Source of the DNA: Spirochaetia bacterium
Lineage (GTDB): Bacteria > Spirochaetota > Spirochaetia > UBA9216
Reading direction: 5' to 3'
DNA length: 64,000 nt
Assembly (NCBI GenBank): GCA_963675665.1
Contig: OY776510.1
Location: 2,784,001 to 2,848,000 of the forward strand
Shown here one piece after another: positions 33,165 to 37,032 of the stretch. Under the pieces are notes generated by a model. It did not search any database. It was not told the origin of the DNA and saw only the letters and a list, made by a program, of their open reading frames with translations. The position numbers and the translations under genes were made by a program. How positions within the stretch are numbered: position 1 is the first letter of the stretch; every line of letters begins with the position of its first letter.

Positions 33165-34532
33165 ATGTTAAAAAGAAATCAACACGGAATCGGGATCATT
33201 ATGTTATTAACGACGGTTGCGGCCGCCGTTTTGCTGTTTATTACATCATGTGCTTCAACACCGGATAAGCCCGAATGGATGATCAATTATCCGATTGATA
33301 ATGCCTACTATATCGGAATCGCCGGATCGAACACGGGTAATCAGGCTGAAGATAATGAAATTGCCAAACAGCTCGCCATGTCGACGCTTTCCGCGGAAAT
33401 TTCTGTTGAAATCATCAGTGAGATCAATATTCGTACATCAGAAGACAATAAAGGAAATGCCGAACAGGCGGTAGAAGAAGCAATCTCACAACACGTAGCA
33501 CAAAACCTCAAGGCTGTAGAAACTGTTGACGGGTTCTATTCTCCTGAGGACGGATACTGGTACTACCTGAGACTGAACAAGGCTGAGTGGATGGCGATTC
33601 AAAAGAAGGAAATGGCCGATATCGAACGCAGGGTCAAGAACCTTGTAGAACCGGTGCTTGGTAATGCAGATCGCACAATGGCTGAGATTCTTCCCGTGCT
33701 TGTGGACGGCTGGTCGATTGTGAATGAATCCACATATCCCGGCATGATTGAAACCAGTCTGATGGGTGAAAAAGGTATGCTGATAGACCTTCTTGAACGG
33801 CAGATTGCACTCCAAATAGGTTCGTTATCCATAAATCTTTCGAGTGAAGAAATGGCAGCTGAAGCCGGACGGCCGGTCCCCCTTCAGTTTACAGTGAATA
33901 CATCCAAAGATAACAAACCAGGGCAGCTTCAGATAGATCTTGTCGATAGAAACAGCGGCAGGCCTCTGGTAAGCTGTACAACCCCCTCGAGCGGCAGATA
34001 CGACGATAATATTGATTTATCCGGCCTTGTTCCGGGCAAGAATTATATTACGGCAGTTCTGAACACAGACGTTCTCGGATATGAAGGAAAAGCAATTCAG
34101 CTCAACCCTCCGAAAACCGATTTTATGATCGATTTGCAGAAGATAAAAACCGGTTTATCTGTCGATTATACCGGCGATCTAGATGAATTTGAAAATGAGG
34201 CCGGAATCTACGGAACAATCAAGGCTATGCTTTCCGATTCTCTTCCGGTAAAGATCGAAAGCGGTGATGATTATACATTCGGAATTGACTTCAAGCTTAA
34301 TTACCGTGATGCCCCGCCGAATGATTACGGTTTCACTATCGTCTATATTAAGGCGAATATTTCAATACTGAGAAACGGTGCAAGCATTTACACATACGAG
34401 ACTGATGAAGCCAAAGGTGCCGGGTTAAACTGGACGCAGGCCAATACCAAGGGCCTTGAAAAGCTTTTTGAAGAATTCAGTTCAGACGGTGTTTTTGCTG
34501 AAGAAGCCGGCAAGGCATTCAGTATCGATTAG
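33165..34532 (+). CDS. LPP20-family lipoprotein, long form
   Basis: Lipobox ITSC, KPEW...YYIGIA and AMSTLSAEISVEI. Confidence 0.75.
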   Translation: MLKRNQHGIGIIMLLTTVAAAVLLFITSCASTPDKPEWMINYPIDNAYYIGIAGSNTGNQAEDNEIAKQLAMSTLSAEISVEIISEINIRTSEDNKGNAEQAVEEAISQHVAQNLKAVETVDGFYSPEDGYWYYLRLNKAEWMAIQKKEMADIERRVKNLVEPVLGNADRTMAEILPVLVDGWSIVNESTYPGMIETSLMGEKGMLIDLLERQIALQIGSLSINLSSEEMAAEAGRPVPLQFTVNTSKDNKPGQLQIDLVDRNSGRPLVSCTTPSSGRYDDNIDLSGLVPGKNYITAVLNTDVLGYEGKAIQLNPPKTDFMIDLQKIKTGLSVDYTGDLDEFENEAGIYGTIKAMLSDSLPVKIESGDDYTFGIDFKLNYRDAPPNDYGFTIVYIKANISILRNGASIYTYETDEAKGAGLNWTQANTKGLEKLFEEFSSDGVFAEEAGKAFSID

Positions 34533-34631
34533 TTTATTTTACTGAAAGAGTAAATAATGGTAACCTCTGATATGATGTGACCCATGTCAAGTTAAAATAT
34601 CCAGGTTTTATCTATAAGATCCCCCCCCTGT

Positions 34632-34830
34632 CCAGGACAGGAAGAAAGATAGAACAACGTTTATGCGGCGATAGACCACTCTGATATTCGCGGATTGGTT
34701 ACCGCAGGTCAATGGGATCGTCGGGAGCTGCCTCTGTCTAAAACCGAGGATCAATATTATTATTGCCTCATAGAGGTGCCGAGGGTTCTCCTTTATCACT
34801 GTTGTTGTTCTATCCATCCTTCTGTCCTGG
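34632..34830 (-). ncRNA. Putative bridge/seek RNA of the IS element
   Basis: An outer stem (34632-58 with 34804-30) encloses two stem-loop arms. These carry target-matching (TCTAAAA, TAGAGGT) and donor-matching (CTGATAT) segments. Confidence 0.75.
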
Positions 34831-34854
34831 TAGCTTATTAACCAACTATCGAAG

Positions 34855-35958
34855 TCATGCGACTTCTGTTCTACCTACCATCATTCCCCAAATAAATCCT
34901 GATAATTCTCTGGCAACTGCCGTAACAGTTTTCTGAGGGCATACCCCTCTACGAATCATCCTGAAATATTTCTTACTCAACCTTCTGCCGGCTTTATCAG
35001 CATAAGCTATTGTTTCAGCAGATTGTCCTTTCCTTCTCGCTGTCAGTCGTTTCGATGGCGAATACCTTTGGTAATGCCAGCTTGATTCCACTAACAGCCG
35101 TCGTAGCCTGGAGTTGCCGGCCTTCGTAATCCCGCCAAGCTTCCGGCCCTCTCCGCTTGAGTATTCTGACGGCACAAGTCCAAGATACGCCATGAAGGAT
35201 TCCGCTTTTTTAAATCTTCTGAAATCTCCTATCTCGCATACAAATGTTAATGCTGTTAATGTCTCTATACCTTTGAAACATCGAAGCCGGGATACCCTTT
35301 CTTTATATCTGTCTTCAGCAGCAATCTCTTCTATTTTTTCCTGCAACCGTTCAATCTTTTCCTCTAATTCCACAATCGCAAGATAATATTCTTTTAAAAC
35401 TTCTTTATGCATTACCTGTTCAAACTGCAAGTTTTTCAACCAGGTTCGATGCGCCCCTGTCCAGTACTTTTTCCCAATATCATATTTCTTCCCGTTCCTT
35501 AGCAGAAACTGTAAGAGCCTCTGTTTCTGTTTCCTCAAATCAATTTTCATATCGTTACACATCCTCATGTAATCACGAACTGATTCATCTGTGCGTGTCG
35601 GTATATTCACCGGTGTTATTTCCTGATTCCTTAATGCTCTGGCTAATTTGACTGCATCCCTCTTGTCTGTCTTTATTCGGTCTCCGGGTTTCCTCGGCAA
35701 TAATGATGGTGCTGCTACGTAACAGATAATTCCCATATCTTCAAGTAATCTATAAAGTGTAAATCCTGTAGGGCCTGCTTCGTAACAACACAGAATATTT
35801 TCTCCATTCTCTTTAAGTCGCTTGAAGAATCTTTTAATATTTCCGGGTTCGTTCCTGAGCTCTCTTTCAAACTCAGGATTCTGATAATTATCTCTGAATA
35901 CCGCTACTGCGATTGATTCCTTGTGGACATCCATCCCTACATAAATTACACTATTCAT
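34855..35958 (-). CDS. IS110-family DEDD recombinase/transposase
   Basis: Motifs YVGMDVHK, CYEAG, KTDKRDA, AYLGLVPSEYSSG and AVAREL. ATG 35958 with SD GGAGG. Confidence 0.95.
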   Translation of the reverse strand: MNSVIYVGMDVHKESIAVAVFRDNYQNPEFERELRNEPGNIKRFFKRLKENGENILCCYEAGPTGFTLYRLLEDMGIICYVAAPSLLPRKPGDRIKTDKRDAVKLARALRNQEITPVNIPTRTDESVRDYMRMCNDMKIDLRKQKQRLLQFLLRNGKKYDIGKKYWTGAHRTWLKNLQFEQVMHKEVLKEYYLAIVELEEKIERLQEKIEEIAAEDRYKERVSRLRCFKGIETLTALTFVCEIGDFRRFKKAESFMAYLGLVPSEYSSGEGRKLGGITKAGNSRLRRLLVESSWHYQRYSPSKRLTARRKGQSAETIAYADKAGRRLSKKYFRMIRRGVCPQKTVTAVARELSGFIWGMMVGRTEVA

Positions 35959-36303
35959 AGTGGCCTCCGTTCCTTTGTATGTGGCGTGTCTGCGCTTTGC
36001 CATTAGCCATTGTGTAGGCTAATCCACGATTTTGCAAACACGGCGGTCACTTCATATTGTCTAAAAACCCTGAATTGGGGTCTTTAGAGGTTTGAAACAT
36101 TCTGTGTTTTAGAAGTCCCCTTATCTTTCAGATTCTACCGGCTGTGAAAATTCGCCATTATCAGAAATATTACAACTACAGAAAATATCTGAAATTCCTC
36201 TCCGTAAACCGAACCGGGGATGTGCAGTCTCGCATACATCAGCAGGGCTGTACCGGTTTTCTGCGCTTGAATTCATGATGATTTTCTTATAATATCGGGT
36301 TTC

Positions 36304-36341
36304 GGCGGTCGCAGTTACCCGCCTTAACAAAACGACGGAGG
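36304..36341 (+). promoter_or_regulatory. PreQ1-I riboswitch
   Basis: GGCGG-TCGCAGTTAC-CCGCC-TTAACAAAACGA-CGGAGG has the same layout as the T. tengcongensis preQ1-I aptamer and abuts the SD. Confidence 0.9.
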
Positions 36342-36348
36342 CACATCA

Positions 36349-37032
36349 ATGAATGCTCTTCTATGGTTTATAATGCTTATTATAAACTTTGCGGCAATAA
36401 TGCTTGCATACAGGCTCTGGGGTAAAACAGGGCTGTTTATCTGGATCCCGATATCGGTTATTGCGGCAAATATTCAGGTTTTAAAAACTGTTGAAATCTT
36501 CGGCTTGATTGCTACTCTCGGAAATATCGTATATGCGACATCCTTTCTTGTAACCGATATTCTGAGTGAAAATTACGGAAAAAAAGACGCGTCAAAGGCC
36601 GTCGGAATGGGTTTCTTTGCCCTGATCTCCATGACGGTGCTGATGCAGTTCGCACTTAATTTTATACCTCATCAATCAGATTTTGCTCAAGGCAGTCTTG
36701 AGACTATTTTCGGTATAATGCCCCGAATTGCAGCAGGCAGCCTTGCCGCCTATGCCCTCTCGCAGTTGCATGATGTTTGGGCCTATAACAGGCTGAAGGC
36801 CCGCAAACCCGGGAAAAAATACATCTGGATAAGAAACAACGCCTCAACAATGATCAGCCAGCTGATCGACAGTGTAGTATTTACGCTTATTGCGTTTGCA
36901 GGCGTGTTTGAGTTCGCCGTACTTGTTGAAATTCTTTTAACAACCTACCTTTTCAAATGGATTGTGGCGGCAGCCGATACGCCGTTTATATACCTGGCCC
37001 GAAGCTGGAAAGACAGGGGGCTGGTAGAGTAA
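36349..37032 (+). CDS. Queuosine precursor transporter (YhhQ/DUF165 family)
   Basis: Motifs ANIQVLK, TDILSENYG, WIRNNASTMISQLIDS and DTPF. Preceded by a preQ1 riboswitch. Confidence 0.92.
   Translation: MNALLWFIMLIINFAAIMLAYRLWGKTGLFIWIPISVIAANIQVLKTVEIFGLIATLGNIVYATSFLVTDILSENYGKKDASKAVGMGFFALISMTVLMQFALNFIPHQSDFAQGSLETIFGIMPRIAAGSLAAYALSQLHDVWAYNRLKARKPGKKYIWIRNNASTMISQLIDSVVFTLIAFAGVFEFAVLVEILLTTYLFKWIVAAADTPFIYLARSWKDRGLVE

Follow-up and report, generated by a model that had tools for sequence, protein, structure and literature searches.

RNA-guided recombinases of the IS110 and IS1111 families, which use bridge or seek RNAs, have been described since 2024 (PMC11187229, PMC11208160, PMC11208158). 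Bridge RNAs were predicted in 93% of IS1111 elements (Durrant et al., PMC11208160), subterminal inverted repeats of 7-17 base pairs (bp) are reported for this family (PMC11208160), and its proteins are given as 330-350 amino acids (aa) long, with GL-P----S(t)G as their C-terminal motif (Siddiquee et al. 2024, PMC11187229). Here we analyze a 64,000-nucleotide stretch of a Spirochaetia bacterium (GenBank assembly GCA_963675665.1, contig OY776510.1, positions 2,784,001 to 2,848,000; further referred to as the window, the coordinates of which are used below), taken from a genome that consists of a single contig of 5.15 Mb. On the minus strand, at 34567-36062, it holds an element that is very probably an active, RNA-guided insertion sequence of the IS1111 type within the IS110 family, with its target spelled by its own small RNA. 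Support for the RNA-guided reading comes from homologous elements, since their guides covary with their insertion sites.

The element comprises 1494 bp plus one copy of a CT/AG core. Its limits are set by seven genomic copies, the flanks of which diverge directly beyond 34567 and 36062, and loose ends of contigs from public sequencing runs (at 34562/34567 and 36067) agree with these boundaries. Its outline is as follows:

34567-36062, minus strand: whole element including the core at each junction (seven copies, 100% identity over 1496 nucleotides (nt))
36061-36062, minus strand: core dinucleotide at the left-end junction (AG in element sense, CT on the plus strand), also found in the paralogue L008 and in homologues
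34567-34568, minus strand: core dinucleotide at the right-end junction, the core being repeated at both junctions
36045-36057, minus strand: left subterminal inverted repeat ATATGAAGTGACC, 3 nt inside the core, agreeing at 12 of 13 positions with the right repeat in reverse complement (ATATGATGTGACC)
34570-34582, minus strand: right subterminal inverted repeat GGTCACATCATAT, 1 nt (C) inside the core
34855-35958, minus strand: recombinase gene, 367 aa (Pfam, NCBIfam and IS621 alignment; homologue alignments start at the ATG at 35958)
36063-36093, plus strand: remainder of the interrupted target hairpin, which together with 34562-34568 reads AACCTCT joined to AAAAACCC-TGAATT-GGGGTCTTTAGAGGTT

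The non-coding DNA measures 288 nt on the downstream side of the recombinase gene, compared with 104 nt ahead of its ATG. Insertion occurred without target duplication: the junctions have only the core in common, and excision in silico restores a palindrome. A preliminary description of this DNA had placed the element at the same limits with a CT core, and had claimed that excision at the CT yields AACCTCTAAAAACCC-TGAATT-GGGGTCTTTAGAGGTT; the seven-copy boundaries and the restored hairpin agree with it on each of these points. The repeated CT itself has to be qualified, however: CT/AG is common to L008 and the homologues, but at the window copy the repeat actually reads TCT.

Over 1496 nt, seven copies in the genome show 100% identity; they and a paralogue with 68% identity (L008) are located at 0.55, 2.05, 2.62, 2.82, 3.73, 4.46 (L008), 4.98 and 5.03 Mb (G000:C1). 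In element sense the seven sites read (T/A/C)(T)(T/A)TT-AG-AGGT(T/G). The sequence TAGAGGT is invariant at all 7 independent insertion sites, whereas the four nucleotides left of the core vary (TTTT at three sites, TATT at three and CTTT at one). Six of the 7 sites are located in one arm of a hairpin repeat. Uninterrupted hairpins of the target type occur at other places in the genome, such as near 386,500, and 19 sites with the pattern T[TAC]TTAGAGGT are still unoccupied, some of them being intact hairpins of the same type.

The target hairpins form a repeat family downstream of genes (window 36063-36115; flanks of L002, L005 and L007), and some adjoin a second small palindrome (AAACACAGAATGTTT-like), similar to composite repetitive extragenic palindromic (REP) elements. 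All seven copies as well as L008 are found on the minus strand, while the free target sites are divided into 13 on the plus and 6 on the minus strand. A replication-linked strand bias was rejected, as same-strand copies occur on both replichores (GC skew places the origin at ~0.83 Mb and the terminus at ~3.53 Mb). The bias could be due to chance (~1 in 64 for 7 copies, two-sided) or to an oriented repeat family.

The RNA was read from the minus strand, in recombinase sense, with the guides ACCUCUA, UUUUAGA, AUAUCAG and AUUGACCU. The minimum free energy (MFE) fold of the minus-strand 3' region (z = -2.6 for the single sequence) consists of an outer stem enclosing two arms:

34632-34830, minus strand: core of the predicted bridge/seek RNA (MFE fold; covarying structure in 32 homologues)
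34801-34830 (5' strand) with 34632-34658 (3' strand), minus strand: outer stem (MFE fold)
34771-34780, minus strand: target loop, 5' side, GGCACCUCUA, in which ACCUCUA would pair with TAGAGGT (left-flank T, core and right flank)
34745-34770, minus strand: inner hairpin of the target loop, with compensatory changes in 6 of 6 aligned pairs (helices 5 and 6)
34735-34744, minus strand: target loop, 3' side, GUUUUAGACA (UUUU for the left flank, AG for the core, then ACA)
34706-34716, minus strand: donor loop, 5' side, CCCAUUGACCU, in which AUUG matches the left-end CAAT and the remainder is imperfect against AUUGUCU
34690-34705, minus strand: donor-loop hairpin GCGG-UAACCAAU-CCGC (helix 8, 98% paired, nearly invariant)
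34673-34689, minus strand: donor loop, 3' side, GAAUAUCAGAGUGGUCU (AUAUC and AG equal right end and core, followed by AG)

The target arm is closed by GGAG/CUCC and CCUC/GAGG and has a 10 x 10 internal loop around its inner hairpin, and the donor arm is formed by the stem CGACGAU/AUCGCCG with CCCAUUGACCU, the GCGG..CCGC hairpin and GAAUAUCAGAGUGGUCU. On the plus strand the corresponding motifs are TCTAAAA (34737-34743), TAGAGGT (34771-34777), CTGATAT (34681-34687) and AGGTCAAT (34706-34713). These motifs, the outer stem, the two arms and the GAGG..CCTC and GCGG..CCGC hairpins had all been pointed out in the preliminary description and were recovered at the same places. Directly after the outer stem, at 34620-34628, lies a run of 8 C (G in RNA sense), which is one base shorter in one metagenome run.

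The target loop complements both strands of its site, with ACCUCUA against TAGAGGT of the element-sense strand and UUUUAGA against TCTAAAA of the other, and the two matches overlap at the core. For the donor loop, right end plus core are repeated exactly over 7 nt by AUAUCAG. Three exact 7-mer matches are present at structurally equivalent loop positions, while the calculated expectation for a given 7-mer on one strand of 288 nt is ~0.017. Given this low expectation, the occurrence of TAGAGGT at all 7 sites and the covariation of guides with flanks, the guide matches exceed what chance would yield.

For analysis of the covariation we collected four full relatives from genome contigs, two more from the window's taxonomic order, and further RNAs through a pattern scan of metagenomes for a conserved RNA stretch. 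The scan returned 121 stretches, 80 of which were fetched; 30 of these 80 carry GGAGAAYCCUYG upstream and are true RNAs, the rest matched by chance within coding DNA. Once repeats of one locus had been merged, 32 distinct RNAs remained. The right end was defined by the donor-loop guide and core beside the inverted repeat, a definition that is independent of the target guides. Right flanks were scored by the contiguous match, outward from the core, with the reverse complement of the 5' loop strand, and left flanks by the 5 nt ahead of the core in the 3' loop strand. Four RNAs for which a right end was missing from the available DNA or not recognized by the rule (L010, L048, L086 and L101) were left out of the flank counts, the automatic left end of L043 was discarded (3 mismatches), and the right flanks of L043 and L079 were added by hand.

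On both sides of the core, the guides follow the flanks of their own element. For the right flank (28 elements) the mean cognate match is 4.39 nt (median 5; at least 4 in 21 of 28) against 0.53 for non-cognate combinations, a sum that was not attained in any of 20000 permutations. For the left flank (21 elements) the corresponding means are 2.71 and 0.69 nt, and here, too, none of 20000 permutations came up to the observed value. The preliminary description had named covariation between guides and insertion sites as one test of its reading; such covariation is now found for either flank. The rows are partly non-independent: L017, L091 and L105 predict an identical right flank, L031 and L042 nearly so, and several RNAs have one target in common (AATTGCTG). 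Five metagenome RNAs with differing stems and recombinases (L017, L031, L091, L105 and L047) predict nearly one right flank (AATTGCTG or AACTGCTG), which suggests that they point to one widely conserved target.

The fold is conserved as well, as emerged from the folding and covariation check on homologous RNAs that the preliminary description had proposed. We scored the RNAalifold consensus together with the closing stem of the second arm (32 sequences, 1416 cells) and found 92.2% of the cells paired, against 38-46% with partners slid by 1-3 columns. Changes on both sides occur at 25 of 45 pairs, and 0 of 500 shuffles reached any of the measures. It is the outer stem and inner hairpin that show the compensatory changes; hardly any variation is seen in the donor hairpin or in the stems that close the two arms, so that these parts are uninformative on covariation. 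Invariant G-U pairs (columns 160/196, 207/219 and 24/239) are compatible only with the recombinase-sense strand. Overall, the stems are conserved among the aligned homologues and the loop strands are the variable parts.

The recombinase gene is, judged from its sequence, intact and equipped with the predicted DEDD/Ser catalytic residues. Its longest open reading frame (ORF) spans 382 aa from a start at 36003; a GGAGG at 35964-35968 lies 5 nt ahead of the ATG at 35958. Two Pfam domains are present, PF01548 (DEDD_Tnp_IS110, E 2.7e-13) in the N-terminal and PF02371 (Transposase_20, E 3.5e-22) in the C-terminal part, and the protein scores 240 bits against NCBIfam NF033542 (IS110 family RNA-guided transposase), for which the cut-off is 140. 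The best match among solved structures is IS621 (8wt6, E 2.2e-10), a similarity that is local only. In this alignment VGMD, CYEAG, KTDKRDA and EYSSG stand opposite IGID, IEAT, KTDTVDA and RYESG of IS621, the catalytic residues of which have been assigned and numbered as Asp, Glu, Asp and Asp of the DEDD set plus the Ser of SG (PMC11208160, PMC11208158). The motif GLVPSEYSSG conforms to the IS1111 pattern GL-P----S(t)G. The protein had been taken for an IS110/IS1111-group recombinase beforehand; the PF01548/PF02371 and NF033542 matches and the IS621 catalytic alignment place it in the IS110 family.

The recombinase frame is open in 7 of 7 copies. Their near identity, with each copy at a matching site, supports the earlier characterization of the element as intact and natively programmed. 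The paralogue L008 (G000:C1:4456572-4458050, minus strand) is inserted at CCCGT-AG-CTTTTTT and has the loop strands UAAAAAGCU and UCCGUAG. It probably is a decaying relative with a retargeted RNA, since its frame has one in-frame stop (TAA) and its right-end guide carries a C-for-U change. A profile search of the genome for the RNA gave 8 copies, all within elements, by which the existence of orphan RNA genes in this genome was rejected.

In three genomes of the same genus the flanking genes are syntenic with no element between them; their intergenic DNA is unalignable and without the hairpin, so that it offers no base-exact empty site. One contig (depth 5) in the public runs contains a joint from 34715 to 35919. 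We rejected it as a deletion derivative; it probably represents an L008-like paralogue contig placed on two conserved patches at 90% likeness. Another contig joint, from 34590 to 34661 with 65 letters between, fits an L008-like paralogue too.

A route by which the element could move can be proposed from these features together with published relatives. As inferred from IS621, ISEc11, ISKpn4 and ISPa11, excision would produce a circle that joins the right end to the left end at the CT/AG core. A circle-junction promoter that drives both gene and RNA has been described for both families (PMC11187229), and a candidate for one half of it was read by eye in the right end:

34585-34590, minus strand: TTGACA, a -35-like box, 17 nt from the core G

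Of 27 homologous right ends, 24 carry the pattern TTGAC[AG], and in 19 the spacer is 17 nt long. The circle junction would thereby create TTGACA-N17-GACAAT upstream of the recombinase (again read by eye), and this promoter would transcribe the recombinase together with the downstream RNA; a consensus scan revealed no strong promoter in the integrated left end. The RNA would bind the recombinase, as is inferred from the published relatives. Its target loop would pair with both target strands (ACCUCUA with TAGAGGT, UUUUAGA with TCTAAAA; predicted target TTTTAGAGGT), while the 3' side of the donor loop, AUAUCAG, would pair with right end and core. Recombination at the core would then insert the element without duplication into the arm of a hairpin repeat downstream of genes. 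By analogy, the element may be reprogrammable.

Several observations weigh against this RNA-guided reading. The right flank has fewer than 4 contiguous matches in 7 of 28 homologues, with L012, L042 and L093 essentially failing, and the left flank fails in L105 and L054; moreover, the right flank is weak in L060 and L075 and has one internal mismatch in L047 and L070. Some of the misses concern short contigs, and chimeric assembly is possible there. The closing stem of the donor arm (helix 7) is 87% paired, with no compensatory change and with an A-C mismatch in the clade. The left-end guide matches at only 5 of 7 positions (AUUGACC against ATTGTCT), and 19 of the 21 homologues with an identified left end have AGACA there, which leaves too little variation for covariation to assess this guide; in seven homologous RNAs the right-end guide departs at one position from the constant ATATC end. 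Rfam gave 0 matches at E up to 1 over 34000-36600 on both strands, none of the 16 sequencing runs listed is recorded as RNA, so that the small RNA is a prediction from sequence, and neither circle junction nor empty site was seen in the contigs of four public runs over 34200-36400.

The imperfect left-end guide had been recognized in the preliminary description and proves to be a clade-wide trait: AUUG is kept in 32 of 32 RNAs, and the next 3 nt vary (ACC in the window clade, UCA in relatives of the L011 type, which read AUUGUCA and match the left end at 6 of 7 positions). Recognition of the left end would probably rest on 4-5 RNA pairs (AUUG..C) together with protein contacts to the inverted repeats. 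Right end and guide show compensatory changes in two to three cases, with ATATA in both for L099, ATAGG in both for L043 and a partial agreement for L079.

The 3' loop strands also spell the junctions of the inserted element. The last 9 nt of GUUUUAGACA give the left junction as TTTT, AG and ACA, the left end itself starting with ACA; the right junction of the window copy (right end, core and target AG) is reproduced by AUAUCAGAG, so that the AG after the donor-loop core corresponds to the first 2 nt of that copy's right flank. In IS621, once strands have been exchanged, the antisense guide pairs with the other DNA through the nucleotides that follow its core (PMC11208160, PMC11208158). One may speculate that the post-core nucleotides (up to 3 nt) of IS1111-type RNAs are handshake guides of the IS621 kind, with RNA recognition of the left end limited to ~4-5 pairs and the inverted repeats taking over; we regard this as doubtful, though worth stating, as it would make such RNAs a hybrid of the 'bridge' and 'seek' models. 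A handshake on the donor side was rejected, as the 2 nt do not follow the flank in homologues and the match in the window may be due to chance (1 in 16). On the target side, AGACA equals the left-end AGACA in 14 of 21 homologues; the left end hardly varies, so this offers no discrimination.

Alternatively, the RNA might select the target only, through its first arm, while the recombinase reads the element ends via the inverted repeats and the donor matches are structural or protein-binding nucleotides. Such a division of labor would account for a left-end guide that is imperfect and varies in relatives (ACC, UCA, GCC, GUC, CAC) next to a constant left end, for the tolerated mismatch to the right end in 7 RNAs and for the 2 nt after the donor-loop core that do not covary with target flanks. 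It also finds precedent in ISEc11, for which an RNA of 82-96 nt with target matches only is reported as sufficient (Siddiquee et al., PMC11187229), and long inverted repeats are a distinguishing IS1111 feature. Nonetheless, AUAUCAG copies right end and core exactly over 7 nt at a loop position equivalent to that of the target guide, right end and guide change jointly in L099, L043 and partly L079, and donor-binding nucleotides, often in a multi-loop, are reported for IS1111 RNAs (Durrant et al., PMC11208160). We consider a target-only RNA unlikely.

It is far less probable still that the copies are fossils, recently active but now immobile for want of RNA expression or a host factor. The lack of a strong left-end promoter in the consensus scan, the in-frame stop of L008 and the contigs devoid of circle junction or empty site would fit immobility; contigs drop rare forms, however, which makes their silence uninformative, and the seven copies are identical over their full length with open frames and guides that still match their sites. 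Least credible of all is that the 3' structure serves as an mRNA 3' end or stability element with guide matches arising by chance. Its modest single-sequence z-score (-2.6) and the missing Rfam match would be in line with this, but it is already contradicted by guides that track the flanks of homologues (0 of 20000 permutations) and by variable loops between invariant stems.

Outside the element, a leader GGTTTCGGCGGTCGCAGTTACCCGCCTTAACAAAACGACGGAGG at 36299-36343 on the plus strand immediately precedes a transporter gene of the Vut_1/YhhQ type (36349-37032; PF02592, E 3e-52). The leader is conserved in three genomes of the same genus. Its match with the PreQ1 model RF00522 is sub-threshold (11.5 bits against a gathering value of 39, E 3.4 on 101 nt); from its sequence, it may be a divergent preQ1-type riboswitch.

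With respect to known systems, the architecture is of the IS1111 type as far as sequence can tell, because of the subterminal inverted repeats, a left end that is short and a right end that is long, and an RNA located downstream of the gene. The best annotated plasmid relative is an IS110-family gene of Leptospira interrogans (47% identity over 362 residues). The translation of this copy (plasmid NZ_CP136246.1) is near-identical, compared by eye, to IS1533 in the source data of PMC11187229, and IS1533 of Leptospira is called a member of the IS1111 family there (Siddiquee et al. 2024, PMC11187229). The IS1533-like element has the same layout as the window element, its 3' region matches the RNA profile (nhmmer E 2.8e-27), and its ends are alike, with AG-ACA at the start of the left and CATATC-AG at the finish of the right end; it differs in host and target and has less than 50% identity. 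ISEc45 shows 43.7% identity to the recombinase and a weak RNA match, and for the textbook IS1111 elements IS4321 and IS5075 the alignment is confined to residues 198-293 (E 1e-8). At 367 aa, the recombinase exceeds the family's stated length of 330-350 aa (PMC11187229).

ISEc11, ISKpn4 and ISPa11, as described in PMC11187229, share with the window element a downstream non-coding region, subterminal inverted repeats, insertion without duplication, and two overlapping target matches of which the one complementary to the top strand is 5'. Palindromic or REP-like targets are a further common trait, as is the circle-junction promoter, which for the window element is a prediction from sequence. ISPpu9 with its Ssr9 RNA in Pseudomonas putida KT2440 (PMC12288879) is comparable in being multi-copy in extragenic palindromes with a small RNA downstream of the transposase; it is reported to have additional stand-alone RNA copies, unlike the genome of the window.

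IS621 (PMC11208160, PMC11208158) resembles the window element in its two loops, its CT core, and the make-up of each loop, in which one guide has the sense of one strand and contains the core while the second is antisense to the other flank. The combination of a longer guide on one side with a 2-5-nt guide on the other is similar to the asymmetry of IS621 as well. In IS621, however, the RNA is described as lying upstream in the left end and the inverted repeats as 2-3 bp only; in the window element the donor side is in a larger loop, and the handshake that IS621 performs finds no support from covariation.

The element thus adds a new example to a known RNA-guided type. Its mechanism is not new, given that such IS110/IS1111 recombinases have been on record since 2024. 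What it contributes is a natural IS1111-type case from a spirochaete lineage, with seven fresh copies and a clear target code in a short 10 x 10 loop. Tool development is one use for which it is a candidate. Its family, with at least 32 RNAs that nature has directed at many different sites, provides a data set for the guide rules of the IS1111 type, which is less studied than IS621.

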